Assembly (NCBI GenBank): GCA_046498345.1
Contig: JAWOAW010000017.1
Location: 526-64,525, forward strand
Direction of reading: 5' to 3'
Length of the DNA: 64,000 bases
Source of the DNA: Thermoplasmatota archaeon
Lineage (GTDB): Archaea; Thermoplasmatota; E2; UBA202; DSCA01
Shown here: positions 8,311 to 27,945 of the stretch, piece after piece
Layout: every line of letters begins with the position of its first letter
Position numbering within the stretch: position 1 is the first letter of the stretch
The notes under the pieces: model-generated
The model's database searches: none
Seen by the model: the letters and a program-made list of their open reading frames with translations, nothing else
What the model was told of the DNA's origin: nothing
Translations under genes and position numbers: made by a program

Positions 8311-8353
8311 CATTGGTATAGTGCATCTGCTGGCGGTAAAAATAGTCTTCGCT

Positions 8354-13357: not shown

Positions 13358-13626
13358 TCGAGGAAAGCGAAGTGGTGGTGCTCCTGCTGGGGCTGGCAAC
13401 CCTGCTGTTCATGACGGTAAACCGTCGCCGGCTGCGGCGGCTCCCCCGGCTGAAGGTGCTGGCATCCAGCTTTCTCCTCCTGCTGGCCGGCTGGACGCTG
13501 ACCATACTGGAGGGGTTTGTTCTCCACGAACACCTCAACCTCCTAGAACATGCCTGCTACGCGGCCAGCGCCCTGATGATAGCGGGATGGATATGGACCG
13601 TGTTTACCCCAGGAGTGGATGGATGA
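13354..13626 (+). CDS. Small 2-3 TM membrane protein coupled to the histidine kinase
   Basis: 90 aa hydrophobic ORF whose ATG overlaps the HK stop (ATGA). Unknown family. Confidence 0.45.
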   Translation: MIEESEVVVLLLGLATLLFMTVNRRRLRRLPRLKVLASSFLLLLAGWTLTILEGFVLHEHLNLLEHACYAASALMIAGWIWTVFTPGVDG

Positions 13627-14072
13627 TAGGGGCGGTGGGCGCGGCCGACCTGGTATCCCTGTTCTCCCTGGCGCTGGCACTTCTCCTGCTGTGGCGGGGA
13701 TGGCATCGGCAGCTGGGAGACGATGCGATGCTGTCGCTGGCCGGCGAAGCCGCCGTGGAGACATACCGGGAGGGACTGGAGGCCGGGCAGCCGCCGTCAC
13801 TGGTGGTTATGGACCTCAACCTGTCGGGAAGCAACGCCGACGAAGACATCGTGTACCGGCACCGGGAGGGCGAAGACGAAAAAATGGACGGGGTTCGCAC
13901 CGCGATGGCCATCTACGCCGTTGACGGCAGCGCAGTGATATGGGGGTACACGGCCTGGGCGGACACGCCCTGGGCTGACCGTCTGGATGACGTCGGTGCC
14001 CATAAAATCATTGATCGTATCGTGCCGTTCAAGGCGTTCGCTGAAATGGTGGCCGGCCATCTGCGGGGATAG
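13623..14072 (+). CDS. Membrane-anchored receiver (REC)-like domain protein
   Basis: N-terminal TM (LVSLFSLALALLLLW) followed by a degenerate CheY-like core (SLVVMDLNLSG ... KIIDRIVPFKAFAEMVAGHL). ATGA overlap with the upstream ORF. Confidence 0.45.
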   Translation: MIGAVGAADLVSLFSLALALLLLWRGWHRQLGDDAMLSLAGEAAVETYREGLEAGQPPSLVVMDLNLSGSNADEDIVYRHREGEDEKMDGVRTAMAIYAVDGSAVIWGYTAWADTPWADRLDDVGAHKIIDRIVPFKAFAEMVAGHLRG

Positions 14073-14083
14073 CACCCTCAAGG

Positions 14084-15109
14084 CTACCGGGTGAGCGGTG
14101 ACAGGTCAAGCTGCTCCGCAGCCGCCTTGATTTTTTCAACCTTGGCCGCCTCATCGGGCAAAATGATGGATTCGATGGCCTCCACCTTTTGAGCGGCGGT
14201 GTAGGTGTCCAGCCGGACGGACAGCAAGGGTACGTCGTTTTTGTCGGCCCGCGCCGTGAGATTGGAGGGCGGGATGATGTTGTTGGTCAGCAGGATGCAC
14301 GAGGTGTTGGGGTCTTTGAGCGAGGCGGCGATGACGTCGGTGCGGTCGCCGCCGGTGATGATGAGCTTGTTTTTCTTCTTGAAATCGGGATGCCGCTGTA
14401 TCTGGCTGGCGGACAGCGCTCCGATGAGGATATGCTGGATGGGGTTGCCGAGTCCGCCGCTGCCGGCCACGACCTTGGCGAACAATTTGTCGGCCAGGTA
14501 GCTGGCCTGCATGGTGTCGAGCTCCTCGATGTGGGGCATGACGCCCAGCAGGGGTATGTTTCGCTCCTCCAGGGCCTCCTCGACATGGTGCAGGTCGTCG
14601 TCCTTCGGGCGGTCCAGCACGGCGCCGATGATGGCGACGTCGTCGCTCTCTGCCACCCGATGGGCGAAGACAAGGTCGTCCAGCATGTCGGAGGCTTCGC
14701 CGGTGAGCGCGAGCACCACGCCTGCATCGAGATGATGGGCCACGGAGAAGGTGTCCAGGCCGAGCGACCGGCCGTGGGCGAGGTCGTAGCTGCCTTCGAC
14801 GAGAAACACGTCTCGGCCCGCGGACAGGGCTTCGGCCCGCCGCGTCAGCTCCCCGGGGATGTCCGGGAACGCATGCGCTATCTTGGAGTAATGGAATCCG
14901 ATGGTGAACTCCTCTATGGGCTGGTCGATGGCGAACACCTTTTTGAACAATGCTGCATCGTAGTCAACCAGCCGTTTCTTTTTGTATATCTGGTTGTCGC
15001 CCAGCGGTTTCATGTATCCGATGGAGGCGTCCAGCTGCTGTGCGATACCCAGTGCAACGGTGCTTTTTCCCGCGTTGGGGGACACCGAAGCCAGAACTAT
15101 TGTCTTCAT
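14084..15109 (-). CDS. DRTGG plus AAA (CobQ/BioD-like) domain protein, resembling the N-terminal regulatory half of bacterial phosphotransacetylase
   Basis: P-loop VSPNAGKST at the N-terminus and a DRTGG-like motif (IITGGDRTDV) in the C-terminal half. The ATG at 15109 overlaps the TGA of the upstream ACS (ATGA on the minus strand). Confidence 0.7.
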   Translation of the reverse strand: MKTIVLASVSPNAGKSTVALGIAQQLDASIGYMKPLGDNQIYKKKRLVDYDAALFKKVFAIDQPIEEFTIGFHYSKIAHAFPDIPGELTRRAEALSAGRDVFLVEGSYDLAHGRSLGLDTFSVAHHLDAGVVLALTGEASDMLDDLVFAHRVAESDDVAIIGAVLDRPKDDDLHHVEEALEERNIPLLGVMPHIEELDTMQASYLADKLFAKVVAGSGGLGNPIQHILIGALSASQIQRHPDFKKKNKLIITGGDRTDVIAASLKDPNTSCILLTNNIIPPSNLTARADKNDVPLLSVRLDTYTAAQKVEAIESIILPDEAAKVEKIKAAAEQLDLSPLTR

Positions 15110-17208
15110 GTTTCTTCCACCTCTATATTTATACAAGCGTCTATAACTTTTGCCCCGTCTTCGTAGACCATCAACGGGTTGATATCCAGCTCGGATATCT
15201 CCGGGAAGCGGTCCACCAGCACGCCGATACGGTAGATGGCGTCGATGACCGCCGGGATGTCCTTCCGCCCCTCGCCGCGGACGCCGAGCAGCAACGGGAA
15301 GGAACTGGTCTCCCGCATCATTTTCGCTATCTCTTTTTTGCTGACCGGTGCCACGCGGAACGCCACGTCCTTGAGCACCTCCACATAGATGCCGCCCAGG
15401 CCGAACATCAAGGTCTTGTCGAACGACGGGTCGGTCGTCGAGCCGATGATGGTCTCCACTCCCTCCGGCACCATCTTTACTACCTCGACGCCGCGGATGT
15501 TGGCATCCGGCATGTACTGCCGGCAGTTCCGGATGATCGCCTCATATCCCTCGACCACCTCGCCCTCGTTTTCCAGGTCCAGCAGCACGCCGCCGCAGTC
15601 CGTCTTATGCACGATGTCCTCCGAGACCACCTTCATGACCACCGGGTAGCCGATGTCGTTGGCCGCCTCGACCGCCTCGTCGATGTTCCGGGCCACGCTG
15701 AACGATGGCACATGCAGGCCGAGCGCGTCCATGATCTCCTTCGCCTCGGTACCCAGCAGCTGGCTTCGCCCCTCATCTGCCACCCGGGCGATGACCCCGG
15801 CGATGCGGTCCTCGTCGAACGAGACATCCTCCGCAGCCTCGGCTTCCCGGGGGGCATATGCCTGGTAGAGCGCGTTGAGCGACGACACCGCGTCCTCCAC
15901 GTCGTCAAAGGCCGGCAGCCCGTTGGTCGTCAGGTCGCGGAGCACCCTGTCGGTCTGGTCGCCGCCGAACAGCGAGTACACGATAGGCTTTTTATCGCCA
16001 TATTTTTCCTGGATGTCCAGAAAGGTCTCCTTGACGGGGTCCAGCGGCGACTGCCCCGTCTGACAGTACAGCGCGATAACCGCGTCGATGTCATCCCGCT
16101 GCAGGGCTCGCTCCAGCGCCTCCCGGTATTCGTCGCCGCCGGCCTGCCCGGTCAGGTCGACCGGATTCCGGTATGAGCCAAACGCTGGCAGGACGTCGCC
16201 GAACGTGTCCTCCAGGATTTCCATGTCGCTCAGCAGGTCAACGCCATATTTTTCGCAGGCATCCGCCGCGAGCACGCCGATGCCGCCGCCGTTGGTCACG
16301 ATAACCACGTTTTTGCCCGCCGGCCGGGGGCAGGCGGACAACGTGGCCACCCAGTTGAATCCCTCCTCCAGGCTTTCCGCCCTGAGCACCCCGGCCTGCC
16401 TGAAAGCCGCGTCGAAAATCCTGTCGGAACCGGCCAGCGAGCCCGTATGCGAGGCGACGGCCCGGGCACCCACCTCCGAGCGGCCGGCCTTGATGGCCAC
16501 CACGTTCATGCCCTCCGGCTTCCGCTGTACCAGGTCCATGAACTCCCGCCCGTTGTCCAGCCCCTCCATGTAGAGAAACACGACGTCGGTGATGTCGTCC
16601 TCGAACACATATGAGAGCAGCTCCGCCTCCGTGATATCGGCCTTGTTGCCGATGGAAACAATGGTGGAGAGCCCCATGTTCTCCTCGGCCGTCTTGCCGA
16701 TCATGGCGATGCCCAGCGCACCCGACTGCGATATCACGGCGATGTTGCCGGGCCGGATGTCGGAGGGGCCAAAGGTTGCATTGACGGGAGCTGCGGCGGA
16801 ATACAGGCCAAAGACGTTGGGCCCCAGGATGCGCATGCCGTGCCCGTGGGCAGCCCGGACCATCTCCCGCTCAGCCTCGATGTTACCGATCTCTGAGAAG
16901 CCTGACGTGATGACGATGGCAAATTTAACGTGGTGCTCCGCGCACTCCCGGATGACCTCCACCGCGATCTTGGCGGGGACCACGACGAGCGCGAGGTCGA
17001 CGGGTTCGTCGATGCTGCTGACATCCTCGTATACCTCGTGCCCCAGGATTTCGCCGCCCCTGGGGTTCACCGGGTAAATGGCGCCCTGGTATCCCGAGTC
17101 GACGATGTTTCTGAGGACCGTATGCCCTATCTTTCCCTCGTCGTGTGATGCACCGATAACGGCCACGTTTCGAGGGTTGAACAGGGGAGCAAGGTCGGTC
17201 GATGTCAC
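15106..17208 (-). CDS. Acetyl-CoA synthetase (ADP-forming), fused alpha/beta subunits
   Basis: CoA-binding N-terminus (NPRNVAVIGAS), succinyl-CoA-synthetase-like flavodoxin domain, ATP-grasp C-terminal half. I place the start at the GTG (VTSTDLAPLF), because a minus-strand TATA (AAATTTATAATA at 17231-17242) lies inside the longer ORF. Confidence 0.85.
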   Translation of the reverse strand: MTSTDLAPLFNPRNVAVIGASHDEGKIGHTVLRNIVDSGYQGAIYPVNPRGGEILGHEVYEDVSSIDEPVDLALVVVPAKIAVEVIRECAEHHVKFAIVITSGFSEIGNIEAEREMVRAAHGHGMRILGPNVFGLYSAAAPVNATFGPSDIRPGNIAVISQSGALGIAMIGKTAEENMGLSTIVSIGNKADITEAELLSYVFEDDITDVVFLYMEGLDNGREFMDLVQRKPEGMNVVAIKAGRSEVGARAVASHTGSLAGSDRIFDAAFRQAGVLRAESLEEGFNWVATLSACPRPAGKNVVIVTNGGGIGVLAADACEKYGVDLLSDMEILEDTFGDVLPAFGSYRNPVDLTGQAGGDEYREALERALQRDDIDAVIALYCQTGQSPLDPVKETFLDIQEKYGDKKPIVYSLFGGDQTDRVLRDLTTNGLPAFDDVEDAVSSLNALYQAYAPREAEAAEDVSFDEDRIAGVIARVADEGRSQLLGTEAKEIMDALGLHVPSFSVARNIDEAVEAANDIGYPVVMKVVSEDIVHKTDCGGVLLDLENEGEVVEGYEAIIRNCRQYMPDANIRGVEVVKMVPEGVETIIGSTTDPSFDKTLMFGLGGIYVEVLKDVAFRVAPVSKKEIAKMMRETSSFPLLLGVRGEGRKDIPAVIDAIYRIGVLVDRFPEISELDINPLMVYEDGAKVIDACINIEVEET

Positions 17209-17304: not shown

Positions 17305-17748
17305 TCATATGGTCGTCGAAAAAACGTGGAACGGAGCCCGCTTCATGCCCAGCTTCCGGTAGATGGCCGCCGCCTCCCGGTTTGCCTCGTGCAGATACAA
17401 TCTGACGGCGTAGACGTTGTTTTTCATGGCTCGCCGGTGCACCTCAGCGAAAAGCTTTTTGAGTATCCCGCTGTGCCGCCAGGCTTGTTTCACGTAGATG
17501 CGGTGCAGCCACCATATGTCCCTGTTCCGCCAGTCGCTCCATTCATGGGTGACGAGCACCTGGCCGACAATCTCGCCGTCATGCCGCGCCACAAGGTAAA
17601 ACCCGCGCTCCTCGCTGGCAATCAGCGCCCGGGTGCCTTCGATGGCCACCTGGGAGTCCATCTCCACGTGTTCGGTTTCCATGCGAAGCTGCACGTTGTT
17701 CCGGGCGATGGCCTCCGCGTCCTCCATGGACGCCGTTGATAGAAACAT
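17305..17748 (-). CDS. GNAT family N-acetyltransferase
   Basis: 147 aa. Acetyl-CoA binding motif (VARHDGEIVGQV ... RHSGILKKLF). Confidence 0.8.
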   Translation of the reverse strand: MFLSTASMEDAEAIARNNVQLRMETEHVEMDSQVAIEGTRALIASEERGFYLVARHDGEIVGQVLVTHEWSDWRNRDIWWLHRIYVKQAWRHSGILKKLFAEVHRRAMKNNVYAVRLYLHEANREAAAIYRKLGMKRAPFHVFSTTI

Positions 17749-17825: not shown

Positions 17826-18524
17826 TCAGTCGAGCCATCCCTGCACGGCTCGCGTGGCCATGTCCACGTGGCGCTGTCCGTCATCTTCGATATGTGGGCC
17901 ATGCCCCGGGTAGAGATTGGTGACGGGCATGTCCAGCATGTGAATGGAACGGGCCAGCGCTGCCGGGTCGCCCCCCTGGAAGTCGGTGCGGCCGACGCCG
18001 CCGTGGGCGAATATGAGGTCGCCGGAGAACAATGCTGCCGTTGCTGTCTCGTAGAGGCAGATGCTGCCCGGGGAATGACCCGGGGTGTGGATGACCTGCA
18101 GCGACGTGCCATCGAGCGGTATCTCGTCGCCGTCCTGCAGCTTTCTGTCAACCTGGGTGGGCTCCTGGGAGGCGCCGAACCAGCCGGCTGACCAGTCCTT
18201 GCCCTGCTCGACGACGGCTGCGCCTGCCTCGTGCATGTATACCTGGCTGCTGCAGCGCTCCCGCAGGTCGGCGACGCCGCCGCAGTGGTCGTAGTGTTCG
18301 TGGGTGAGCACGATGGCGTCGAGGACGCCGGGGTCGATGGACGCCGCGAGCTTTCTGTATACGTATGCGCTGTTCACGCCGGTGCCGGCGTCGACGAGGA
18401 TGTGACGGTCGCCACTGACCAGGTAGATGTTGGCGTCGAAGCCGGCGCCCGGGATGGCTGTCACCTGCATGCGCCGGTAAATGGCCCGGGCTATATATTG
18501 CTTTGTGGCTTCATGGAACGTCAC
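17826..18524 (-). CDS. MBL-fold hydrolase (glyoxalase II / hydroxyacylglutathione hydrolase-like)
   Basis: THEHYDHCGG motif plus downstream His/Asp ligands. 232 aa. Confidence 0.8.
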   Translation of the reverse strand: MTFHEATKQYIARAIYRRMQVTAIPGAGFDANIYLVSGDRHILVDAGTGVNSAYVYRKLAASIDPGVLDAIVLTHEHYDHCGGVADLRERCSSQVYMHEAGAAVVEQGKDWSAGWFGASQEPTQVDRKLQDGDEIPLDGTSLQVIHTPGHSPGSICLYETATAALFSGDLIFAHGGVGRTDFQGGDPAALARSIHMLDMPVTNLYPGHGPHIEDDGQRHVDMATRAVQGWLD

Positions 18525-18565: not shown

Positions 18566-18769
18566 ATGGACAAAAAACGGCGGAAGTACGTCGAAAAGAT
18601 AGAGGATTTAAACCAGCAGCGGGCCATCATCGACGACGACCTGCGCTCGCTGAAACGGCGCCGGGATGAGCTCTCGGACAAAAAATATGACCGGATGAAA
18701 AAAAAGTATGAACGGAAAAAGGAAAAGATAAAGCAGAAGATACGGAAATACGAGGAAAAAATCTGCTGA
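18566..18769 (+). CDS. Small Lys/Arg/Glu-rich coiled-coil protein (hypothetical)
   Basis: 67 aa ORF in a distinctly AT-rich islet, with AAA/AAG/GAA codon bias and TATA-like ATGTATAG upstream. No recognisable family. Confidence 0.35.
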   Translation: MDKKRRKYVEKIEDLNQQRAIIDDDLRSLKRRRDELSDKKYDRMKKKYERKKEKIKQKIRKYEEKIC

Positions 18770-18775
18770 GCCGGG

Positions 18776-20650
18776 TCAGTCGAAGTGCATCCGGATGTGG
18801 TATACCCCATCCTTGAGTTCTTTTTCCATCGTGAAATCCATTTTTTCAAACAGTTCGAGCATGCCCCGGTTGTTGGCCAGCACGTCGGCGGTGAAGCCGT
18901 AGAGGCCGCGCCGCTTGGCTATCTGCGTGAGATATTTGAGCAGCTCGGTGCCCACGCCCTGCTGCTGCCAGTCGTCCCGGACCACGAAGGCGACCTCGGC
19001 GCTGTTGGTGTTCTCGTCGAGACCCCAGCGGCCCACGCCCACGAGCTCCTCTTTATCCTCTTCGCCGGTGACCGCCACGATGGCCATGTTTTTGCTGTAG
19101 TCGACGTTGGCCAGCTCGTGCAGCTGCTGGCGGGGCAGATAATGCTTGACGCCCATGAACCGCTTGTAGATGGTCTCGTTTGAAAGATTGTAGAACATGT
19201 CCTTGAGCAGTTCCTCGTCGGCGGGTTTGACCGGCCGGAGCAGCACCCGCGTGCCGTCGGGGAGATGCACATATTTTTCCAGGTCAACTGGATAGATGCC
19301 ACCCCGCCCGGTTACCATCATCTGGTCCTGGTAGACCAGGTTGTATTTTTTGGCCTCCTCCAGCAGCTGCTCCCGGAACCTGGGATGCGCGATGCTTATC
19401 AGCGCCACGGCCCGCTCACGGATGTTTTTGCCGTGCAGGTAGGCGCTCCCATATTCAGTAACCACATAGTGCACGTCGCCCCGGGTCAGGGTAACGCCGG
19501 CGCCCTCCTTCAGGAAGGGGACGATGCGGGATACCTCGCCGTTTTTCGCCGTGGCGGGCAGCGCGATGATGTTTTTGCCGCCCTCGCTCAACGCGGCGCC
19601 GCGCATGAAGTCGGCCTGGCCGCCGATGCCGCTGTAGAACTCGTGGCCGAGCGATTCCGCGGTGACCTGGCCGGTGAGATCGATTTCCAGGGCGGTGTTG
19701 ATGGCCGTCATCTTGTAGTTCTGGGCGATGACCGTGGGCTTGTTGGTGTACTCGATGGGCCGGAACTCGAACTCGGGGTTGTTGTTGAGATAGGCGTAGG
19801 TTTTCTGGTGCCCCATGCAGAACGAGGCGATGGCCTTGCCCCGGTGTATCGATTTTTTTTCGTTGGTGACCACGCCCTTTTTCATGAGCTCGACGACGCC
19901 GTCGGTGAGCAGCTCGGTGTGGACGCCCAGGTCCCGCTTGCCCTGGAGGCTGGCGACGATGGCGTCGGGGATGCTGCCGTAGCCGACCTGGATGGTGGCC
20001 CCGTCCTCGACCAGCCGGGCCACGTTTTTGCCGATGGCGTCGGTGGTTTCATCCACCTCGCCCGTCTTGTATTCCAGCAATGGCTCATCATGGGGGATGA
20101 CGTAGTCGACGTCCTCGATGTGGATGAAGCTTTCCCCGAGCACGCGGGGCATGTTTTTGTTGACCTGGGCGATGACCACGTCGGCGTTTTCCACCGCCGA
20201 CTTGACGATGTCCACGCTGATGCCGTAGCTCATGTAGCCGTGCTCGTCGGGCGATGACAGCTGGATGAGCGCCACGTCCACGGGGATGACATCCCGGTGG
20301 AACAGGTCAGGGACGGCAGACAAAAAAATCGGGGTGTAGTCGGCCATCCCCTTGTTGACCGCGCCCCGGGTGTTGTCCCCGATGAAAAAGGCGTTGTGTC
20401 GGAAGTTCATCTCGAACTTGGGTTTGACGTAGGGGGCCACACCCAGCGTCCATACATGGAAGACTTCGGCGTCGGCGAAGGCCTTGGGATTGTCTTCCAC
20501 GTACTCGGCCAGTTCCTTGACCAGATGCGACGGCTTGCCGCAGCCGGTGCCGATAAATATTTTGTCGCCGCCGTGGATATGCTCGAACACCCGTTCCAGG
20601 TTGGTGGCAAACTTTTTGGGATACTTCCGCCGGAGGGTCTCCATGCCCAT
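18776..20650 (-). CDS. Acetyl-CoA hydrolase/transferase (Cat1/ScpC family) fused to a C-terminal Pat-type GNAT acetyltransferase domain
   Basis: Start at MGMETLRRKYPKKF; the longer ORF extending to 20947 is rejected. The CoA-transferase family fold spans both halves. The C-terminal about 160 aa matches the GNAT of bacterial protein acetyltransferase Pat (YPVDLEKYVHLPDGTRVLLRPVKPADEELLKDMFYNLSNETIYKRF). Confidence 0.8.
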   Translation of the reverse strand: MGMETLRRKYPKKFATNLERVFEHIHGGDKIFIGTGCGKPSHLVKELAEYVEDNPKAFADAEVFHVWTLGVAPYVKPKFEMNFRHNAFFIGDNTRGAVNKGMADYTPIFLSAVPDLFHRDVIPVDVALIQLSSPDEHGYMSYGISVDIVKSAVENADVVIAQVNKNMPRVLGESFIHIEDVDYVIPHDEPLLEYKTGEVDETTDAIGKNVARLVEDGATIQVGYGSIPDAIVASLQGKRDLGVHTELLTDGVVELMKKGVVTNEKKSIHRGKAIASFCMGHQKTYAYLNNNPEFEFRPIEYTNKPTVIAQNYKMTAINTALEIDLTGQVTAESLGHEFYSGIGGQADFMRGAALSEGGKNIIALPATAKNGEVSRIVPFLKEGAGVTLTRGDVHYVVTEYGSAYLHGKNIRERAVALISIAHPRFREQLLEEAKKYNLVYQDQMMVTGRGGIYPVDLEKYVHLPDGTRVLLRPVKPADEELLKDMFYNLSNETIYKRFMGVKHYLPRQQLHELANVDYSKNMAIVAVTGEEDKEELVGVGRWGLDENTNSAEVAFVVRDDWQQQGVGTELLKYLTQIAKRRGLYGFTADVLANNRGMLELFEKMDFTMEKELKDGVYHIRMHFD

Positions 20651-20731
20651 CGCTTCTTCATGGCAGCCGGCTATTAAAAGGTTTAGTGTACGGGGGGCAA
20701 GCAATATAACCCGATAGCCCATTACACGTAT

Positions 20732-21001
20732 ATGACTGTCGGCTACATTCTTATCTCTATTGCGCCGGCGAAGGAGCAGGCGGTGCACGAGGCGCTGGCC
20801 TCCATCGACGAGATAACCGAGCTGTACTCTCTTTTTGGTCCCTACGACGTCATCGCCAAGGTGGCGGTGGACAGCGAGGACGTCCTGGCCAGCGTGGTTC
20901 TCAACCACATTCGGCCCATAGACGGCGTCGCGGACACCAAGACGCATACCGTGGTGCCGCTCGAGCAGCTAACGCCGGGGCAGGAAGCATCGGAGGGGTA
21001 A
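20732..21001 (+). CDS. Stand-alone Lrp/AsnC ligand-binding (RAM) domain protein
   Basis: 89 aa: [40 protein letters not shown], the RAM-domain pattern without an HTH. Confidence 0.6.
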
Positions 21002-21066: not shown

Positions 21067-22098
21067 ATGAAAGCTGGCATTGTTGGTTATGGGGCGTATG
21101 TCCCGAAGTATAGAATTAAAACAGAGGAAATCGCCCGTATGTGGCGGGGCGACGGGGCAGCGATCGCTGCCGGCCTCATGGTCTACGAGAAATCGGTGCC
21201 GGCGCTCGACGAGGACACCGCCACCATCTCGGTTGAGGCGGCCCGCCGGGCTGTTAAGCTGTCGGGCATCGACCCCCAGGACATCGGAGCATTGTATGTC
21301 GGGTCGGAGTCGCATCCCTACGCGGTCAAGCCCACCGCCACCATCGTCGCCGAGGCGATACAGGCCACGCCTCATCTGGCCGCGGCGGACTACGAGTTTG
21401 CCTGCAAGGCCGGCACGGCGGCCATGCAAAACTGCCTGGCCCTGGTCAGGGCGGACATGATTACCTACGGCATGGCCATCGGCGCCGACGTGTCGCAGGC
21501 GGCCCCCGGCGACGCATTGGAATATGCCGCAGCGGCGGGAGGCGCCGCGTTCATCCTGGGCCGGGACAACCTCATCGCCGAAATAAATGAAACCCTGTCG
21601 TTTACCACTGACACCCCGGATTTCTGGCGTCGGGAGGGAGAGCCCTACCCGGGCCACGGCGGCCGTTTCACCGGCAAACCCGCCTATTTCCGGCATGTGA
21701 CGGCCGCCACGGAGCGTCTCATGGAGGAGATGGGCACCAAGCCGGGAGACTACGACTACGCGGTCTTCCATCAGCCCAACGGCAAGTTTCCATCCCGGGT
21801 GGCCCGCAAGCTCGGGTTTACGAAGGAGCAGATCGAGGAGGGATTGCTCTGCTCGATCATCGGCAACACCTATTCAGGGTCGACGCCCCTGGGCCTGTCA
21901 GCGGTGCTCGACGTCGCCGAGCCCGGCGACCGCATCCTGGCCACCTCGTACGGCTCCGGGGCCGGCGCCGACTCGTTTGACATCACGGTCACCGACGGCA
22001 TCGAAGGCTACAAGCGAAACAACATACGGCGGATGCTGGAGGACAAGGAATATCTTGACTACGGCCTGTACATGAAACACAGAGGTGAGTTTGCATGA
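21067..22098 (+). CDS. Hydroxymethylglutaryl-CoA synthase (archaeal type)
   Basis: [16 protein letters not shown]-terminus and the catalytic Cys context (EFACKAGT) of archaeal HMGCS. TATA-like TTTAAATA upstream. Confidence 0.9.
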
Positions 22099-23261
22099 GA
22101 GACGTAGCGCTCATCGGCGGCGGTCTCACCCAGTTCGGCGAGCTCTGGGAGAAGTCGCTGGCTGACCTGGTGGCGGAGGCCGGCATCGGCGCCATCATGG
22201 ACGCAGGCATCGAGGGCGAGGACATCGAGGCCATGTACATCGGCGGGATGTCCGCCGGGCGGTTTGTCGGCCAGGAGCATCTGGGCTCGCTGGCAGCCGA
22301 AGTGTCCGGATTGAGCGAGCTGCACATCCCCGCCACGAGAGTTGAGGCGGCCTGCGCGTCGGGCAGCTTGGCGCTCCATAACGGCTACCTGGCCGTCGCC
22401 TCGGGCATGTACGACGTGGTGGTGGTCGGCGGCGCGGAGAAGATGACCGACGTGGCCGGCACCGAGGCGACCAACATCCTGGCCTCGGCGGCAAACCGGG
22501 AATGGGAGGCCTTTTTCGGGGCCACGTTCCCCGGCCTGTATGCGCTGATGGCCCGCTACCACATGCACAAATATGGAACAACGGGGGAGCAGCTGGCGCA
22601 GGTGGCGGTCAAAAACCATCACAACGGCACGCTGAACCCGAAGGCGCAGTACCGGCGGGAGGTATCCGTGGAAGACGTGCTCACCTCGACCATGGTGGCC
22701 GACCCGCTGCACCTGCTCGACTGCAGCCCCATCACCGACGGCGCCGGCGCCGTCATCATCGCATCCATGGACCGGGCACAGGAGTTCACCGACCAGCCAA
22801 TCAGGATCGCCGCCTCGGAAACCGTGGCGGACAGCATCTCGCTGAGCGAGCGCAGCCGGTTTGATGGCATCCCGGCGGCGATGACGGCATCCCGGCGGGC
22901 ATACCAGCGAGCCGGCATCTCGCCGGTCGACCTCGACGTGGCGGAGGTACACGACTGCTTCACCATCGCCGAGATCATGGCCATCGAGGACATCGGCTTC
23001 GTCGACAAGGGCAAGGGCGGAAGCGCCGTGGAGGACGGGCTGACCGCGCTGGACGGCGAGCTCCCCGTCAACACCTCCGGCGGCCTCAAGTCCAAGGGGC
23101 ATCCCGTGGGGGCGACCGGCATCGCGCAGGTACATGAGCTGATGTTGCAGCTGCGCGGCCAGGCGGGCCAGCGCCAGGTTGACGATGCCTCGCTCGGGTT
23201 GACGCACAACGTGGGCGGCTCGGGGGGAACAGCCGTCATTCACATCCTGGAGGCGATATAG
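22095..23261 (+). CDS. Acetyl-CoA C-acetyltransferase (thiolase), partner of archaeal HMGCS
   Basis: Thiolase fold ([26 protein letters not shown]). ATGA overlap with HMGCS. Confidence 0.9.
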
Positions 23262-23663
23262 ATGGGTGTACCACGATATTGGAGAGAGATACCACAGCGC
23301 TACAACATCATTGGAACCAAATGCGGGGCCTGCGGCCAGGTGTATTTTCCACCCCGCTCGATGTGCCCTGAATGCAGGCGGGCTTCGGTGGGCAAGATGG
23401 AGGAATACCGGCTCAAGGGCACGGGCACCGTGGAAACCTACACCGTCATCTACGCCCCGCCGCCGCATTTTGAGCACGAGGAGCCATATGTCATCGCGCT
23501 CATCAGGATGGACGAGGATACCTATCTGACGGCCCAGATCGTGGACACCGACCCGGACGAGGTGTCTATCGGCATGCATGTCGAGTCCTGCTTCCGCCGC
23601 ATCTACCAGGACGGAAAGGCGGGTGCCATCCATTACGGCTACAAGTTCAAGCCCGTGGAATAG
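23262..23663 (+). CDS. DUF35 OB-fold / Zn-ribbon protein (scaffold of the thiolase/HMGCS complex)
   Basis: CGACGQVYFPPRSMCPECRR zinc ribbon followed by an OB fold. Immediately follows the thiolase stop, as in the conserved archaeal three-gene module. Confidence 0.85.
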   Translation: MGVPRYWREIPQRYNIIGTKCGACGQVYFPPRSMCPECRRASVGKMEEYRLKGTGTVETYTVIYAPPPHFEHEEPYVIALIRMDEDTYLTAQIVDTDPDEVSIGMHVESCFRRIYQDGKAGAIHYGYKFKPVE

Positions 23664-24310: not shown

Positions 24311-25360
24311 TTACACGGCCTCGGCGTCCACCGTTACCGTCCCGCCGTTTCGGAACGCCTCGACTTCTTCCAGCGACGGTAGCTCGATATGCGAGCTCTG
24401 CTGCTGCTCGTTGTACTGCTCCCGGCCCAGCCGGTCGATGGTCTCCAGACCCTGCGCCCTGAGCATGTCCAGCTTGGTGTTCACCACGTCAACCGTGGTG
24501 CGGAGCGCAAACAGCACCGGAACCAGCAGATGCCTGAACATGAGCGGGAACCCTTCAAACCGGATATCGGAGGTGAGCACCCGGTCCCGCCAGGTGGGCT
24601 CCTCGCCGAACGAGGTGATGGGCAGCCCCATGCCCGCCTCCAGCTCGTCGGAAAACGTTGAATCCAACGGGATCCACTTTCCGTCCACCAGGGCCTCGGT
24701 CTCCCCGTGCAGCGAGTCCAGGAAGCCCAGCATCTCAAGCGTCTCGCTCAGCAAAAGGTCATCTTTTAGCACGGTGTCATAGAACTGCTGCGACGGAGAC
24801 AGCGCATACAGCCGATACCTGGCCGACACGCCGCCGGCGCGGAGCAGCGCCGCCATCAGAGAAAGCTGGTCCAGGCAGACGCCTCCCTTGCTGCGGAAGG
24901 TGCCCAGCGCCCCCCGCATGGTCTTGAACACCAGTTTTTTCTCGTTTTTCACGAACTCGTATACGGCCCGGGTGAACTCCAGCGGGCTTTTCTCCCCGGC
25001 GCCGAGCTTGACCGCCATGGCCCGTATCTCCGGGGCGTCGCTCTCGCAGAGCCGCGTGGGCCGCAGATATTTTTCGGTTCCCACCGGGGGCAGATCCTCG
25101 TAGTCCTCCGGGGACAGCAGCTGCCGGGAGTCATATCTGGACTCGTCCTCCAGATGGCCCCAGGGAGGCTTTGAACGGCGAAGGCGGGCCATCCACCCCG
25201 GCACGTTGGCCAGCGTAGCCCGGGGATGCTTCGCCATGACGAAGATGAGCGCACCGACCGCACCACCCAGGTTCCGCAGCATCGGCAATGGAATGAACAA
25301 TCCCTTGTCGAATTCCTCTCTCAGTTCCGCGAGCATGGTATCACCGCAGCTCCTCGGCAA
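24311..25360 (-). CDS. Transglutaminase-like cysteine protease superfamily protein (paralog 1)
   Basis: TGL core Cys context GGVCLDQLSLMAALLRAGGVSARY plus downstream His/Asp (HGETEALVDGKWIPLD). Overlaps the upstream LuxE-like gene by 20 nt. Clear paralog of the CDS at 39842-40816. Confidence 0.7.
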   Translation of the reverse strand: MPRSCGDTMLAELREEFDKGLFIPLPMLRNLGGAVGALIFVMAKHPRATLANVPGWMARLRRSKPPWGHLEDESRYDSRQLLSPEDYEDLPPVGTEKYLRPTRLCESDAPEIRAMAVKLGAGEKSPLEFTRAVYEFVKNEKKLVFKTMRGALGTFRSKGGVCLDQLSLMAALLRAGGVSARYRLYALSPSQQFYDTVLKDDLLLSETLEMLGFLDSLHGETEALVDGKWIPLDSTFSDELEAGMGLPITSFGEEPTWRDRVLTSDIRFEGFPLMFRHLLVPVLFALRTTVDVVNTKLDMLRAQGLETIDRLGREQYNEQQQSSHIELPSLEEVEAFRNGGTVTVDAEAV

Positions 25361-26720
25361 TCAAGTCCCGCATCAGGTTGCCGCATCCCTTCGCCTCGGC
25401 CCCGGCCATCCGGCTGATGTCGGAATCCATGACCACGCCCGGCCGGTCGCAGACAGGGCAGCGCTCGTAGAGCTTGACGTGGTCCCCGGTGACGATGAAG
25501 CCGGGGTAGCTGTGGGAGACGGGGTCGAGAAACGCGAAGCGTCCCTCCTCGCCGTATCCCTTGGGCTGGTTGTCTTCGTCCAGCACCATGGGGTAGAGCC
25601 AGGGATGCAGGTGCTTGTAGCGTCCCTCGCAGTCCATGCCCAGCGCGTTCATCTCGGACATGCCGTAGATGTCCTTGTAGTGCTCTGGAGGAATGCCCAG
25701 CGTGTCCTCTACCATGCCGGCGAAGGTCTGCGGGGACACCTTTTTGCCCTGGTGTATCTTCCATCCGCCGCCGGTGATGACGATGCCGTTGTGGTCGCCG
25801 AGCGACAGGCTGACGCCCTCCTCCCGCATGATCTCCATGAGGTCGTAGAGCTGGAATGGAAAGGTCAGGATGATGACCTGTTTCCCGGCGCTGTTGAGTT
25901 TTTCCAGCAGCTTGATGAGCTTATATTGCCCTTTTTTCATGACCCGCTGCAGCAGCTTCAGCTTCATCTTGTCCTTGAACCCCCGTATCTGGCCGGACAT
26001 CAGCCGGACGATGTCCATGGTCAGCTCCCGCTCGGTCAGAAAATGGCGCTGGCCGTCATCCATGATCTTGGTCGCCTCTGAAATCCAGTGCCCCATGGTG
26101 AGATAGGTCTTGACCGGGCCGGGGTAGACGAACTGCACGTCGTCGTCGGGGTGGACGACGGAGAACAGCAGGGTTTTGTCAGCCGCATAGAACCACCGCC
26201 TCGTTGTCAGCTCATCCCTGAACATGATGCTGAAGTTTCCCGTGGTGCCCGAGGAATGGGTCACGATGCCGCGCAGGCGGCTTTCAGCCCAGTGGAGAAA
26301 ATCCTGCAGGCTGCCCCCGGAAAAATCATAGTCGCCGATGTCCACCGAAGACACGCGGTACAGCCATTCATAGACGCTCTTGGGGTCCTCCTCCGGGTAG
26401 TCCTTGAAAAAACTGTCGGGAACCCTCGGGATAGCAGTGAGGTCCTCCTCCGATGTGACATCGCCAGGCTGGACGTTGCTGTCCCTGCAGTACCGATGGT
26501 AAAACAGGTTGTTGGAATAATGATGGTCAAACGCCTCGCGGATGGCCTGCGTTCTGGCTTCCCTGACACTCGCCGGGTCATACTCATAATAGTTGTCCAT
26601 GCCATAGATCATGGAGTCAACGGTCGTCCACTTTTCCCGGGGAACCGAGAACCGCTCCGTAAGGTTGTTCCACAGCTGCCCCGTGGTCTCAGCTATCGCT
26701 CGCATGGCCCACAACAACAT
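25341..26720 (-). CDS. LuxE-type acyl-protein synthetase / F390-synthetase-like adenylate-forming enzyme
   Basis: LuxE-like N-terminus (FDHHYSNNLFYHRYC...TSEEDLTAIPRVPDSFFK), adenylation motif SSGTTGNFS, and a C-terminal CPVCDRPG Cys cluster. Confidence 0.6.
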   Translation of the reverse strand: MLLWAMRAIAETTGQLWNNLTERFSVPREKWTTVDSMIYGMDNYYEYDPASVREARTQAIREAFDHHYSNNLFYHRYCRDSNVQPGDVTSEEDLTAIPRVPDSFFKDYPEEDPKSVYEWLYRVSSVDIGDYDFSGGSLQDFLHWAESRLRGIVTHSSGTTGNFSIMFRDELTTRRWFYAADKTLLFSVVHPDDDVQFVYPGPVKTYLTMGHWISEATKIMDDGQRHFLTERELTMDIVRLMSGQIRGFKDKMKLKLLQRVMKKGQYKLIKLLEKLNSAGKQVIILTFPFQLYDLMEIMREEGVSLSLGDHNGIVITGGGWKIHQGKKVSPQTFAGMVEDTLGIPPEHYKDIYGMSEMNALGMDCEGRYKHLHPWLYPMVLDEDNQPKGYGEEGRFAFLDPVSHSYPGFIVTGDHVKLYERCPVCDRPGVVMDSDISRMAGAEAKGCGNLMRDLIAEELR

Positions 26721-26778: not shown

Positions 26779-27861
26779 CTACTCCTGCGGCATCCACAGG
26801 AAATCCGTCTGGTCGCTCACCCGCCGCTCCCGGATGCCCTCCAGCACCTCGGCGATGTCCAGCCCCATCTGGGACAAAAAGTAGCGCTTGTCCTCGTCCT
26901 GCTTGATGACCCCATCGTCTTTCAGCTTCTTGAGATGAAAGCTGAGCTTCGGGTTATCCTTGATGTCCAGCAGCTGCGCGATGGTGGTGAAGCTGTAGGT
27001 GTCGCCGTCGGACAGCGCCTGGATGACCCGCCGGCGCAGGTAGTTGGAGATGGAGTCGGAGAACAGGCTCAGGCGGATGTCGGCGACGACCTCCCGGATG
27101 TCGTCGGCCATCTTGTCGTCGACCCCGCTGAAATCGGTGGACAATATGAGCCGCCCCTTGTGCAGCGACGCCATGCGGTAGAGCCAGCGCAGGAAATCGC
27201 GCACTTGGCCGACGGGATGCTTGTCGAGAAGATATGCGACATCGGCCAGGGCGATGACCACGTCGTCGGCGAGGGCTGCGTCCACGTCTTCCTGCACCGC
27301 CGGCAGGTCCCGGGGCTCCCAGTCGGCGAGCAGCGAAATCGTTTCCACGTCCATGTCTTTGACCCGTTCGACGTCGGTGCCGATGTAGATGCCGTGCGCC
27401 TCGTCGGCCAGCTTCCGGAATTTTTCGATGTAATCGCCGCTTTCCCGTCCCACCTGTTTCAGCCGCTCGAACTTTATCTCCTCGATGGCTGCCAGGATGC
27501 TGCCCTCCAGCTCGTCCATGTCGAACGGCTTTCGGATGTAGTCGAAGGCGCCCTCTTTCATGGCCTCGATGGCGCTGTCCACCGTGGCATACGCCGTTAT
27601 CATGATGACCGGGATCGATGCATCGCGCTGCTTTATCTGTTTCAGGGTTTCGATGCCGTCCATATCCGGCATCTTGATGTCCAGGAAGACCAGGTCCGCC
27701 TCGCCCAGCCGCTCCAGGCAGTCCTCACCCGACTCGGCGGTGACCACCTGGTAGCCGTAGGATTCGATGGCCGTCTTGGCCGCATCGAGAATGGACGGGT
27801 CGTCGTCGACGAACATGATACGCGTGAGCCGCTCGGGGCTGTCACCTGCTTTGGCATTCAT
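26779..27861 (-). CDS. Response regulator: CheY-like receiver plus DUF835-like middle domain plus C-terminal winged HTH
   Basis: REC motifs (IMFVDDD, DLVFLDIKMPDMDG, PVIMITA, KPF). C-terminal HTH-like ANYLRRRVIQALSDGDTYSFTTIAQLLDIKDNPKLSFHLKKLKDDGVI. Confidence 0.75.
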   Translation of the reverse strand: MNAKAGDSPERLTRIMFVDDDPSILDAAKTAIESYGYQVVTAESGEDCLERLGEADLVFLDIKMPDMDGIETLKQIKQRDASIPVIMITAYATVDSAIEAMKEGAFDYIRKPFDMDELEGSILAAIEEIKFERLKQVGRESGDYIEKFRKLADEAHGIYIGTDVERVKDMDVETISLLADWEPRDLPAVQEDVDAALADDVVIALADVAYLLDKHPVGQVRDFLRWLYRMASLHKGRLILSTDFSGVDDKMADDIREVVADIRLSLFSDSISNYLRRRVIQALSDGDTYSFTTIAQLLDIKDNPKLSFHLKKLKDDGVIKQDEDKRYFLSQMGLDIAEVLEGIRERRVSDQTDFLWMPQE

Positions 27862-27945
27862 ATTGCACATCCACGTGGCTTCATGACATAAAAGCGGATG
27901 GTTATATGGAGTTTACGCCGAGGGCCCGGGGAGCCAGGCCGGATA

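Follow-up and report, generated by a model that had tools for sequence, protein, structure and literature searches.

A family-I CoA-transferase fused to a Pat-type GNAT domain in a Thermoplasmatota archaeon: a possible acyl-CoA-responsive lysine acetyltransferase

Introduction

How prokaryotes control metabolism by lysine acetylation is classically illustrated by Pat and its target acetyl-CoA synthetase, which is acetylated reversibly. The gene described here joins a Pat-like GNAT domain to a CoA-transferase and thus raises the question of what such a protein does: does it modify other proteins, carry out acyl-CoA chemistry of its own, or both? Pat types I-V, as laid out in reviews of 2021 and 2024 and in the 2025 PatZ structure paper, are based on a handful of bacterial partner domains, and no CoA-transferase type is listed in the Pat classification reviews of 2021-2025. 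According to a 2025 paper on archaeal Pat homologues, the single-GNAT-domain architecture is common there; fused regulatory domains are cited for bacteria only. A full-text literature search, with coverage that was thin for subscription journals, returned no paper describing a CoA-transferase/GNAT fusion.

Results

Both domains lie on one uninterrupted reading frame

The window, i.e. the whole 64-kb stretch of DNA that was analysed, carries the fusion gene on its minus strand:

18776..20650, minus strand: CoA-transferase/GNAT fusion gene, 624 aa plus stop, from the open reading frame and its translation
20672..20679, minus strand: TATA-like box TTTTAATA, 29 nt 5' of the fusion ATG, read from the sequence

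The frame starts with the ATG at 20650 (MGMETLRRKYPKKF...), ends with the stop codon at 18776-18778 and contains zero internal stops. The mechanical ORF reaches 20947; the 99 codons added in this way are without any homologue and hold the TATA-like box. Since homologues among the protein database matches span 621-634 aa, compared to 624 aa here, the true start is either 20650 or the Met at 20644. The TATA-like box suggests that the fusion gene has its own archaeal promoter and gives rise to a leaderless or short-leader transcript.

The fusion of an acetyl-CoA hydrolase/transferase-family domain with a GNAT domain, as put forward in the original prediction, was borne out by Pfam domains on this single frame. 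An HMM search placed the domain limits at residues 9-189 (AcetylCoA_hydro), 280-433 (AcetylCoA_hyd_C) and 468-607 (GNAT models), and the C-terminal peptide quoted in the prediction (YPVDLEKYVHLPDGTRVLLRPVKPADEELLKDMFYNLSNETIYKRFMG) corresponds to residues 453-500. A stop codon or frameshift between the two domains was sought in the sequence and none was found. The 624-aa protein is 100% identical to a fusion deposited at NCBI from a Thermoplasmatota MAG, and each of the 120 best database matches (120/120) is full-length with both domains present, which argues that the fusion is no assembly or sequencing artefact. The probability that a frameshift, a missed stop or a chimeric assembly merged two neighbouring genes is practically nil. 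The frame is uninterrupted, and the same architecture of ~620-640 aa, together with the conserved linker, recurs in hundreds of independent assemblies from different phyla. Database matches, species spread and family conservation all refute such an artefact, and nothing was found in its favour.

The transferase half belongs to the AbfT/Cat2/But/RipA clade

19337..20626, minus strand: family-I CoA-transferase domain of the AbfT/Cat2/But/RipA clade (residues 9-438), from Pfam, PDB matches and Foldseek
19913..19915, minus strand: Glu246 codon, predicted catalytic nucleophile (glutamyl-CoA thioester), aligned with AbfT E238
19607..19633, minus strand: SGIGGQADF (residues 340-348), GXGG-type CoA-thioester/oxyanion motif, from family conservation and solved AbfT enzymes

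Pfam membership was defined by the gathering threshold for both transferase domains. AcetylCoA_hydro (PF02550) matched residues 9-189 with 2.7e-48 (165 bits, cut-off 24) and AcetylCoA_hyd_C (PF13336) matched residues 280-433 with 2.3e-67 (226 bits, cut-off 23.7), confirming that the GNAT partner is a full CoA-transferase-family domain. The label "Cat1-type", however, had to be given up in favour of the AbfT/Cat2 clade. Comparison with 4-hydroxybutyrate CoA-transferases of the AbfT/Cat2 type yielded 1e-110 to 1e-134 with 35-43% identity over ~430 residues; matches in the PDB included 9vag (1.8e-134), 3eh7 and 3gk7, and Foldseek on a model of the fusion gave TM 0.91-0.95 to AbfT-type structures. 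In contrast, the succinyl-CoA:acetate clade of Ach1/AarC, of which we take Cat1 to be a member, was reached with only ~1e-12 to 1e-14, 21% identity and TM 0.70, in an alignment covering the C-terminal half of the transferase alone. The score against TIGR03948 (butyryl-CoA:acetate CoA-transferase) was 306 bits and stays below the cut-off of 674.8, short of the equivalog level.

The HMMER alignment pairs E246 of the fusion with E238, the catalytic residue of AbfT from C. aminobutyricum (3gk7). Residue conservation was computed over 196 family members, of which 99.5% keep Glu246; in alignment A1 it is invariant. The SGIGGQADF segment fits the pattern GXGG(Q/A)xDF, is near-invariant across the fusion family and is common to the solved AbfT enzymes; we take it to be the CoA-thioester/oxyanion motif near the thioester site of family-I CoA-transferases. 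Indeed, most residues near the transferase active site are invariant, in archaea and bacteria alike. As judged from these residues, the transferase half is apparently catalytically complete and working.

The GNAT half is Pat-like, including catalytic and gating residues

19295..19336, minus strand: conserved inter-domain linker (residues 439-452, VYQDQMMVTGRGGI), from alignment A1 and family conservation
18779..19294, minus strand: Pat-family GNAT catalytic domain (residues 453-624), including the Pat-typical YP...LE...RP lead-in
19160..19162, minus strand: Arg497 codon, in the alpha1-alpha2 'gating' segment of the GNAT domain, aligned with PatZ R754
18995..18997, minus strand: Glu552 codon, predicted catalytic glutamate of the GNAT domain, aligned with PatZ, SlPatA and MtPat
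18950..18967, minus strand: acetyl-CoA pyrophosphate-binding P-loop QQQGVG (residues 562-567), found by a regular expression

Pfam GNAT models matched residues 468-607 with 6e-12 to 6e-11, and the claim that this domain is specifically Pat-like held: its closest solved relatives, in end-to-end alignments, are PatZ (9it0, 7.9e-24), SlPatA (4nxy, 8.6e-20) and MtPat (4ava, 5.7e-16). The mycobacterial Pat model NF058543 was matched over its GNAT part with 1.5e-28, at 99.6 bits compared to an equivalog cut-off of 460. The best structural match found by Foldseek was 4u5y (TM 0.92, rmsd 1.9 A), a crystal structure of the SlPatA GNAT together with the C-terminal domain of Acs.

The alignment of the Pat lead-in and the gating segment (PatZ V746-T763) is gap-free from YP(453) on. 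R497 is aligned with PatZ R754 and invariant in alignment A1; activity is lost in the R754 alanine mutant of PatZ (PMC12184503). The position of PatZ F756 is occupied by Met, as in MtPat. E552 aligns with PatZ E809, SlPatA E123 and MtPat E235 and is kept in 95% of the 196 members, and a catalytic role has been described for PatZ E809 and SlPatA E123 (PMC12184503). The Q/RxxGxG/A motif, as defined in PMC8556138, was looked for in the GNAT domain and is present as Q562-Q-Q-G565-V-G567; this P-loop is kept in 98-99% of the fusion family. The C-terminal domain is thus predicted to be a catalytically complete Pat-type protein lysine acetyltransferase domain, with lysine as the presumed acceptor.

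Within the linker, D442, Q443, G448 and G451 are invariant in alignment A1, and its mean conservation of 0.78 equals that of the two domains (0.79 / 0.78 / 0.76 over both domains and linker). The predicted model of the two-domain chain reached a pTM of 0.84, and low pLDDT marks flexibility in only two places, loop 333-343 at the active site and gating loop 497-504 of the GNAT domain. At loop 497-504 this agrees with PatZ, for which a mobile gating motif has been described. According to Pfam, the fusion protein has no CoA_binding, Succ_CoA_lig or ATP-grasp_5 domain; these are found in the separate synthetase gene at 15106-17208. Its N-terminus holds none of the small-effector domains of type III Pat (cAMP, ACT, NADP); the CoA-transferase is found there instead.

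The fusion is widespread in archaea and bacteria

Conservation of the fusion in relatives was evident from the 120 best matches and extends, at ~60% identity, to at least 592 species genomes in numerous phyla of both archaea and bacteria; this level of identity also holds between archaeal and bacterial members. The range covers many anaerobic bacterial phyla as well as Thermoplasmatota, Methanotrichaceae, Asgard and DPANN archaea. The architecture is common, and not unusual in sequence space; annotation pipelines already name both halves, the IMG label being 'acyl-CoA hydrolase/GNAT superfamily N-acetyltransferase'. When the GNAT clade was surveyed through its 150 closest 50%-cluster representatives, the GNAT domain was joined to a CoA-transferase C-domain in 56, to Pat-like synthetase domains in 6 and to an acetate kinase in 1. 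The commonest fusion partners in this set are acetate/acetyl-CoA enzymes. Many of the short matches in the representative search are gene fragments.

An ADP-forming synthetase and a PtaN-like protein are the conserved neighbours

15106..17208, minus strand: ADP-forming (NDP-forming) acyl-CoA synthetase, fused alpha-beta type, 700 aa, from Pfam and PDB
14084..15109, minus strand: AAA_26 + DRTGG protein (PtaN-like), which by Pfam matches the N-terminal regulatory half of class II phosphotransacetylase
17305-17748, minus strand: stand-alone small GNAT
20732-21001, plus strand: Lrp/AsnC RAM-only protein
21067-23663, plus strand: HMGCS/thiolase/DUF35 module

All neighbours that had been listed (ADP-forming ACS, stand-alone GNAT, DRTGG/AAA, RAM and HMGCS/thiolase) were recovered by Pfam. 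The synthetase matched 8wzu (6e-144) and 4xyl (9e-125) in the PDB, with every NCBIfam match below its equivalog cut-off, and it keeps the catalytic His in the phosphohistidine motif ASH254TGSLAG. The ATG of the AAA_26 + DRTGG gene overlaps the synthetase stop codon (ATGA), and its product corresponds to positions 2-360 of Pta model NF004167, which has 708 positions in all. Downstream of this gene, no RAM domain was found in the ORFs at 13261-14081, and the ORF at 13587-14072 had no significant Pfam match. A convergent gene at 18566-18769, coding for a Lys-rich protein of 67 aa, an MBL gene and the small GNAT gene sit between the fusion and the synthetase. A single operon of fusion, MBL, small GNAT and synthetase genes was considered for the window and rejected, because the convergent gene and oligo-T tracts intervene and there is a separate TATA box (TTTATAAT) for the synthetase.

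Across relatives, 36/70 loci have an ADP-forming synthetase immediately downstream of the fusion and in the same orientation, and in most of these the gap is 11-50 nt. Of the synthetase-linked loci, 29 are long enough to judge what comes next, and in 28 of them it is a PtaN-like AAA_26 + DRTGG protein. The phosphohistidine motif is kept in 38/40 partner synthetases, which indicates that the partner is a working synthetase. AMP-forming Acs was found within 8 kb of the fusion in 13/80 loci, and in 10 of those 13 (10/80 overall) it keeps the classical target motif of Pat, PKTRSGKIMRR; Pat enzymes acetylate the active-site lysine of AMP-forming acyl-CoA synthetases, in a PX4GK motif. Six loci encode a SatP/YaaH acetate channel. 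Either type of synthetase, ADP-forming or AMP-forming, occurs in 56/80 loci, and ~30% of loci have no acetate-enzyme neighbour. The acetyl-CoA-centred neighbourhood of the original prediction is thereby retained in part: conservation across phyla holds for the ADP-forming synthetase and the DRTGG/AAA protein, while HMGCS/thiolase, RAM, MBL and stand-alone GNAT genes adjoin the fusion in only 1-6, mostly close, relatives. A functional link between the fusion and the HMGCS/thiolase module was rejected, since this module adjoins the fusion only in the 4 closest relatives.

Discussion

The fusion shares several features with type I/II Pat (E. coli PatZ, S. enterica Pat, S. lividans PatA). The GNAT domains are homologous over their full length, including the catalytic Glu, the gating Arg, the P-loop and the YP..LE..RP lead-in; both are large multidomain proteins with a partner from an acyl-CoA-handling enzyme family, and both are genomically linked to acetyl-CoA synthetases. 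They differ in the partner itself: the fusion has a ~440-aa family-I CoA-transferase whose active site is intact, whereas Pat carries an NDP-forming synthetase-like domain of 700-900 aa that has lost the catalytic His (PMC8556138). In the fusion family the real, His-containing ADP-forming synthetase is a separate protein, often encoded immediately downstream, and unlike type I/II Pat the family is found in Archaea too. In common with type III Pat (the cAMP-Pat of M. tuberculosis and M. smegmatis, ACT and NADP KATs), the fusion has an N-terminal domain of a few hundred residues in the regulatory position, a C-terminal GNAT that matches the GNAT part of NF058543 (1.5e-28), and an equivalent of MtPat E235 in E552. 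However, its N-terminus is an enzyme fold with catalytic residues and not a small-ligand module, and NF058543 is reached with 99.6 bits where 460 are needed.

With the AbfT/Cat2/But/RipA family the fusion shares the fold, the catalytic Glu and the GXGG motif; known members of that family are stand-alone proteins of ~430-450 aa, to which the fusion adds a 14-residue linker and a 172-aa GNAT domain. Cat1/Ach1/AarC belong to the same Pfam superfamily (AcetylCoA_hydro + AcetylCoA_hyd_C) and are clearly more distant than the AbfT clade. The protein encoded at 14084-15109 has the AAA_26 + DRTGG architecture of the N-terminal domain of class II Pta (E. coli/Salmonella Pta) but lacks the PTA_PTB catalytic domain and is translationally coupled to the ADP-forming synthetase. 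A stand-alone PtaN-like copy, DVU3031, lies next to pta-ack in Desulfovibrio vulgaris (PMC4481167).

Domain identities, intact residues in both halves, family conservation and gene linkage point to an acyl-CoA-responsive lysine acetyltransferase that would control acetate/acetyl-CoA enzymes, with a live transferase in place of the dead synthetase-like sensor of Pat; we give this reading an even chance. Lysine acetylation by the fusion, the identity of its targets and the sensor role of the transferase are what we infer, targets and regulation by association. The transferase half occupies the place of Pat's degenerate NDP-forming-synthetase-like sensor and could sense the acyl-CoA/carboxylate state through acetyl-CoA binding, perhaps as a covalent Glu246-CoA thioester. 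This state would be relayed to the GNAT domain via the rigid, conserved linker, by analogy to PatZ, where binding of acetyl-CoA to the regulatory domain opens the gating motif (PMC12184503; regulatory precedent for Pat also in PMC8556138). Candidate targets are AMP-forming Acs, wherever it occurs, and perhaps also the PtaN-like partner or the co-operonic ADP-forming synthetase. No case of an ADP-forming synthetase as an acetylation target was found in the literature searched.

The conserved chemistry of the transferase half could also be read as that of a metabolic enzyme. CoA would be moved from butyryl-, 4-hydroxybutyryl-, propionyl-CoA and similar compounds to acetate, the synthetase would then convert acetyl-CoA to acetate and ATP, and the GNAT domain would only tune the transferase or its partners by cis- or auto-acetylation, an acetate cycling that resembles the ASCT/succinyl-CoA-synthetase cycle. 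The catalytic Glu and the GXGG motif are strictly conserved (99.5-100%), in contrast to the Pat regulatory domain, which is without its catalytic His (PMC8556138). The partner synthetases that keep the phosphohistidine motif (38/40) fit such a cycle, and the closest characterised transferases all use acetate/acetyl-CoA. What this leaves unexplained is the equal conservation, in every member, of a Pat-type GNAT with the catalysis and gating residues of PatZ, as well as the AMP-forming Acs and the acetate channel beside the fusion in other lineages; as the main role we consider it doubtful, albeit a serious contender. A metabolic enzyme and a lysine acetyltransferase are mutually compatible. Against the lysine acetyltransferase reading it may be noted that the fusion is not co-transcribed with the synthetase in the window, that no AMP-forming Acs lies within its 64 kb, that ~30% of loci are without an acetate-enzyme neighbour, and that the intact transferase active site suits an independent metabolic role at least as well as a sensor role.

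The acceptor is not fixed by the GNAT sequence alone, and weak matches to RimI, ArsN1 and AAC models would fit a GNAT that acetylates small molecules or protein N-termini in place of lysines, with the fusion supplying or recycling acetyl-CoA locally. We hold this to be improbable: those matches are at 1e-5 or weaker, compared to 1e-28 and 8e-24 for Pat, the Pat match takes in the lead-in and the gating segment that are specific to Pat, with the counterpart of R754, and the top structural match is a GNAT crystallised with its protein substrate Acs. By strict analogy with type I/II Pat, whose partner domain binds acetyl-CoA yet is inactive, the transferase half could likewise be a non-catalytic acetyl-CoA-binding scaffold. 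However, archaeal and bacterial members alike keep Glu246, the GXGG motif and most residues close to the active site without change, which is not expected of a binding-only module, and there is little likelihood of such a role.

The lysine acetyltransferase reading can be taken further, to a sixth architectural type of Pat-family lysine acetyltransferase and the first multidomain type in Archaea. Here the live transferase would act as a covalent sensor in which Glu246-CoA occupancy reports the acyl-CoA/carboxylate ratio and gates the GNAT domain, and the output would control an archaeal-style acetate switch consisting of the ADP-forming synthetase, the PtaN-like regulator and/or Acs. We regard this extended proposal as speculative and rather unlikely in its entirety; within it, the CoA-transferase/GNAT type may be more widespread than Pat types I-III.

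The fusion family would add to the known Pat systems a partner domain that is, in its own right, an intact acetate/acetyl-CoA-node enzyme, a wide spread over anaerobic bacterial phyla and several archaeal groups, and a conserved module of three genes, for the fusion, the ADP-forming synthetase and the PtaN-like protein, with the look of a regulated acetate switch in organisms without Pta-AckA. If the proposed function is true, it would provide a handle on the control of ATP-yielding acetate formation in fermentative archaea and syntrophs, and a natural test case for enzyme-derived sensors that retain their chemistry. As part of the extended proposal, the conserved gene order GNAT followed by ADP-forming synthetase might represent an unfused precursor of type II Pat, in which a GNAT domain precedes the synthetase-like domain.

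A CoA-transferase and a GNAT domain share one reading frame

The mechanical ORF of the fusion spans 20947 to 18776 on the minus strand. Since its first 99 codons lack any homologue and contain a TATA-like box, and since homologues are 621-634 aa long, the gene was set to 18776-20650, exactly the span of the original prediction.

The fusion gene and its domains
18776-20650, minus strand: fusion gene, 624 aa, starting MGMETLRRKYPKKF (from the ORF and homologue lengths)
20672-20679, minus strand: TATA-like box TTTTAATA, 29 nt upstream of the fusion ATG at 20650, within the 99-codon extension
Residues 9-189: AcetylCoA_hydro (Pfam, 2.7e-48)
Residues 280-433: AcetylCoA_hyd_C (Pfam, 2.3e-67)
Residues 468-607: GNAT (Pfam, several models)

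The domain-boundary HMM search places a complete transferase domain pair and a GNAT domain in a single 624-aa chain, and no stop codon or frameshift lies between the two halves. A 100% identical protein is present in the database, from a Thermoplasmatota MAG. The window (61% G+C) also encodes TBP, TruD and archaeal-type HMGCS/thiolase/DUF35, which likewise indicate an archaeal source. An AlphaFold2 model of the fusion, built on 70 homologues, reached a mean pLDDT of 84.4 and a whole-chain pTM of 0.84, which argues for a defined rather than floppy arrangement of the two modelled domains. Low-confidence stretches were confined to residues 333-343, the loop into the GXGG motif, and 497-504, the GNAT alpha1-alpha2 loop. 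The inter-domain segment (439-452, 14 residues) is as conserved as both domains, and D442, Q443, G448 and G451 are invariant in the family alignment.

The C-terminal half is a Pat-family GNAT

As had been proposed, the GNAT at the C-terminus truly belongs to the Pat family. The alignment of residues 453-620 with the E. coli PatZ catalytic domain is gap-free (7.9e-24), and the GNAT domain also matches that of S. lividans PatA (8.6e-20) and M. tuberculosis Pat (5.7e-16). Superposition of the model on the SlPatA GNAT, crystallized with the C-terminal domain of Acs, gave a TM-score of 0.92 and an rmsd of 1.9 A. E552 is aligned with PatZ E809, SlPatA E123 and MtPat E235, R497 with PatZ R754, and the Q/RxxGxG/A motif is present in the P-loop (Q562-G565-G567); these residues are 95-100% conserved across the family. 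In PatZ, the E809A and R754A exchanges abolish activity and the residues surrounding R754 form a mobile gating motif (PMC12184503), matching the low-pLDDT loop 497-504 of the fusion model.

The N-terminal half is an AbfT/Cat2-type transferase

The original prediction had named the N-terminal half a Cat1-type acetyl-CoA hydrolase/transferase. C. kluyveri Cat1 is a member of the Ach1/AarC clade, and the fusion matches AbfT/Cat2-type enzymes far better by E-value, identity and TM-score, so that this half is AbfT/Cat2-type, not Cat1-type.

Matches of the fusion to two CoA-transferase groups
4-Hydroxybutyrate CoA-transferases (9vag, 3eh7, 3d3u, 2oas, 3gk7) and RipA: 1.8e-134 to 1e-87, 35-43% identity, TM 0.91-0.95
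Ach1p/AarC succinyl-CoA:acetate clade: about 1e-12 to 1e-14 (C-terminal half only), 21% identity, TM 0.70

The NCBIfam models agree, with 3.9e-91 for butyryl-CoA:acetate CoA-transferase and 1e-33 to 1e-38 for the succinate CoA-transferases; as every CoA-transferase match falls under its equivalog cut-off, a substrate assignment is not supported. The partner is a complete CoA-transferase-family domain, as predicted: besides both Pfam halves, it has Glu246 (HTE246LL), aligned by HMMER with the catalytic nucleophile of the C. aminobutyricum enzyme, Glu238, and the SGIGGQADF motif (340-348) common to the solved AbfT-type enzymes. E246 is conserved in 99.5% of 196 non-identical family members, and SGIGGQADF is essentially invariant among them. 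Judged by these residues, the transferase domain looks enzymatically competent, unlike Pat's regulatory domain, in which the catalytic histidine is no longer present (PMC8556138).

The fusion is widespread in archaea and bacteria

A search of 5.8 billion proteins yielded at least 8000 candidates at E <= 1e-10. The best 120 of these, from Thermoplasmatota, Thermococci, Asgard, DPANN and Nitrospirota, all contain both domains (59-95% identity), and 119 are full length, the exception being a 512-aa fragment. In a scan with one genome per species the fusion was found in at least 592 species, all near 60% identity. Carriers listed include archaea (Thermoplasmata, Methanotrichaceae, Theionarchaea, Halobacteria) and bacteria (Cyanobacteria such as Microseira and Lyngbya, Nitrospirota, Syntrophaceae, Dehalococcoidia, Bipolaricaulota, Planctomycetota, Actinomycetota). 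When the GNAT domain alone was searched against 1.84 billion 50%-identity representatives, 5991 matches were obtained at E <= 1e-10; a CoA-transferase C-domain is present in 56 of the best 150 and Pat-like synthetase domains in 6, many of the shorter proteins being gene fragments. Given this share and the species spread, the CoA-transferase is a major and ancient fusion partner of this GNAT clade, and the architecture is not a curiosity of one genome.

The same best 150 include P0250 (598 aa), in which this Pat-type GNAT is N-terminal to a complete acetate kinase (NCGSSSLK motif), another acetate-node enzyme as partner, as well as one CBS and one receiver-domain fusion. A Methanotrichaceae MAG (L049, 3599-5551 and 7983-9878) and two Dehalococcoidales MAGs (L024, L032) each encode two paralogous fusion copies, spaced a few kb apart.

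The 2021 and 2024 reviews and a 2025 PatZ paper (PMC12184503) recognize only five Pat types: I and II with a synthetase-like partner, III with a cAMP, ACT or NADP domain, IV with a single GNAT and V with tandem GNATs. The common architecture in archaea is a single GNAT domain, according to a 2025 study. No description of a CoA-transferase partner was found in the full-text literature searched, the coverage of which is incomplete. Thousands of database entries already carry an annotation of the architecture; the best 120 matches are named 'acyl-CoA hydrolase/GNAT superfamily N-acetyltransferase' by IMG and 'GNAT family N-acetyltransferase' by NCBI. Because the fusion has the catalytic-domain features of both parent families, lacks the partner domains that define Pat types I-III and reaches no equivalog cut-off, it represents an architectural type of the Pat-family acetyltransferases that is visible in databases yet uncharacterized, of which the locus in the window is an ordinary member.

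Acetate-converting enzymes recur beside the fusion

Genes around the fusion in the window
14084-15109, minus strand: PtaN-like (AAA_26+DRTGG) gene, its ATG overlapping the synthetase stop as ATGA
15106-17208, minus strand: ADP-forming acyl-CoA synthetase with its own TTTATAAT box
17305-17748, minus strand: RimI-like stand-alone GNAT, between fusion and synthetase
17826-18524, minus strand: glyoxalase-II-like MBL-fold hydrolase, possibly a thioesterase, between fusion and synthetase
18566-18769, plus strand: 67-aa Lys/Arg-rich gene, convergent, its stop 6 nt from the fusion stop amid oligo-T tracts
20732-21001, plus strand: Lrp/AsnC RAM protein (ligand-binding only), 89 aa, divergent from the fusion

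All flanking ORFs of 80 related loci were clustered and the neighbour genes of the window were searched by tblastn. An ADP-forming synthetase lies downstream on the same strand in 36 of the 70 loci whose downstream flank is 400 nt or longer, usually starting 11-50 nt past the fusion stop, and the PtaN-like gene comes next in 28 of 29 synthetase-linked loci of judgeable length. In at least one locus (L040, Nitrospirota) the synthetase is upstream and divergent. The phosphohistidine motif SHTG[SA]L is kept in 38 of 40 ADP-forming synthetases (ASH254TGSLAG in the window), which marks the linked proteins as real, working enzymes. AMP-forming Acs occurs within 8 kb in 13 of the 80 loci (Cyanobacteria, Actinomycetota, Thermodesulfobacteriota, Syntrophaceae, one haloarchaeon), 10 of these Acs carrying the classical Pat target PKTRSGKIMRR, and a SatP/YaaH acetate channel is present in 6 loci. 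Either synthetase type is present in 56 of the 80, and the remaining loci have no recurrent neighbour. The fusion is thus recurrently linked to enzymes interconverting acetate and acetyl-CoA.

An acetyl-CoA-centred neighbourhood had been predicted, and the ADP-forming synthetase and DRTGG/AAA protein do recur, whereas the other members are lineage-specific: only the 4 closest relatives have HMGCS/thiolase/DUF35/TBP next to the fusion, the RAM protein adjoins it in 3 close relatives (with a weak match far upstream in L040) and the small GNAT in 1. An MBL homologue separates fusion and synthetase in 3 close relatives (L001, L016, L003). The core of the original reading, a CoA-transferase joined to a Pat-like GNAT, stands, with the transferase subtype and the choice of relevant neighbours revised. 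Three Actinomycetota loci (L054, L055, L065) have weaker MBL matches (34-47% identity) some 7.5 kb upstream, and in three further loci (L082-L084) an unrelated Lactamase_B_2 gene immediately precedes the fusion.

In the window the ancestral operon is broken up, with 1.6 kb between the fusion and its usual partner genes. The convergent 67-aa gene, the oligo-T tracts, the intervening MBL and GNAT genes and the synthetase's own TTTATAAT box indicate that the fusion is probably monocistronic.

Possible roles of the fusion

The fusion has two intact active sites and a rigid, conserved junction. Binding of acetyl-CoA by the synthetase-like domain of Pat/PatZ activates the GNAT cooperatively and helps to form the Acs-binding pocket (PMC8556138, PMC12184503). 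By our estimate there is about an even chance that the fusion likewise works as a Pat-like lysine acetyltransferase, in which the CoA-transferase would serve as regulatory domain. As the transferase chemistry is conserved, this domain may report the acyl-CoA/carboxylate ratio via a covalent Glu-CoA intermediate. The apparently competent active site and the linked synthetase may also be read differently: the transferase domain may instead serve metabolism in its own right and supply the ADP-forming synthetase with acetyl-CoA, within an ASCT/SCS-like acetate cycle.

Translational coupling to the synthetase through ATGA and the recurrence of the pair across phyla suggest, by analogy to the class II Pta N-domain, that the PtaN-like protein is an allosteric regulator of ADP-forming synthetases; no paper on this pairing was found in the literature searched. 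The likeness of the PtaN-like protein to class II Pta's allosteric N-terminal half gives the trio of fusion, synthetase and PtaN-like protein the look of a regulated acetate switch. The gene order GNAT, then synthetase, at fusion loci mirrors the domain order of type II Pat, which hints, speculatively, at an evolutionary link. The family is large and conserved and yields sharp, cheap biochemical predictions.

The 67-aa protein (17 Lys, 10 Arg, probably coiled-coil, MDKKRRKYVEKIEDLNQQ...) has no Pfam match, and the five closest Thermoplasmatales relatives keep its gene in the equivalent place, with identities as low as 45%. This Lys-rich protein is a possible substrate of the adjoining putative lysine acetyltransferase. 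In a Thermoplasmatales MAG (GCA_014361195.1; L081, 12752-13738) the fusion is followed, about 5 kb downstream, by a gene for an HDAC-type deacetylase (Hist_deacetyl), possibly its cognate deacetylase; ORF clustering of the 80 loci (L001-L080) gave no such recurrent cluster.

Elsewhere in the window, the RAM gene heads the HMGCS-thiolase-DUF35 set (21067-23663), the archaeal mevalonate entry. A LuxE-like acyl-protein synthetase (25341-26720, minus strand) overlaps a transglutaminase-core protein (24311-25360, minus strand), beside an ArsR-type-HTH response regulator (26779-27870, minus strand) and a histidine kinase (27946-29748, minus strand). A PAS-rich histidine kinase is encoded at 10541-13357, and a 974-aa protein (5614-8538, minus strand) combines a phospholipase-B-like domain with PQQ/beta-propeller repeats, which is unusual for an archaeon.
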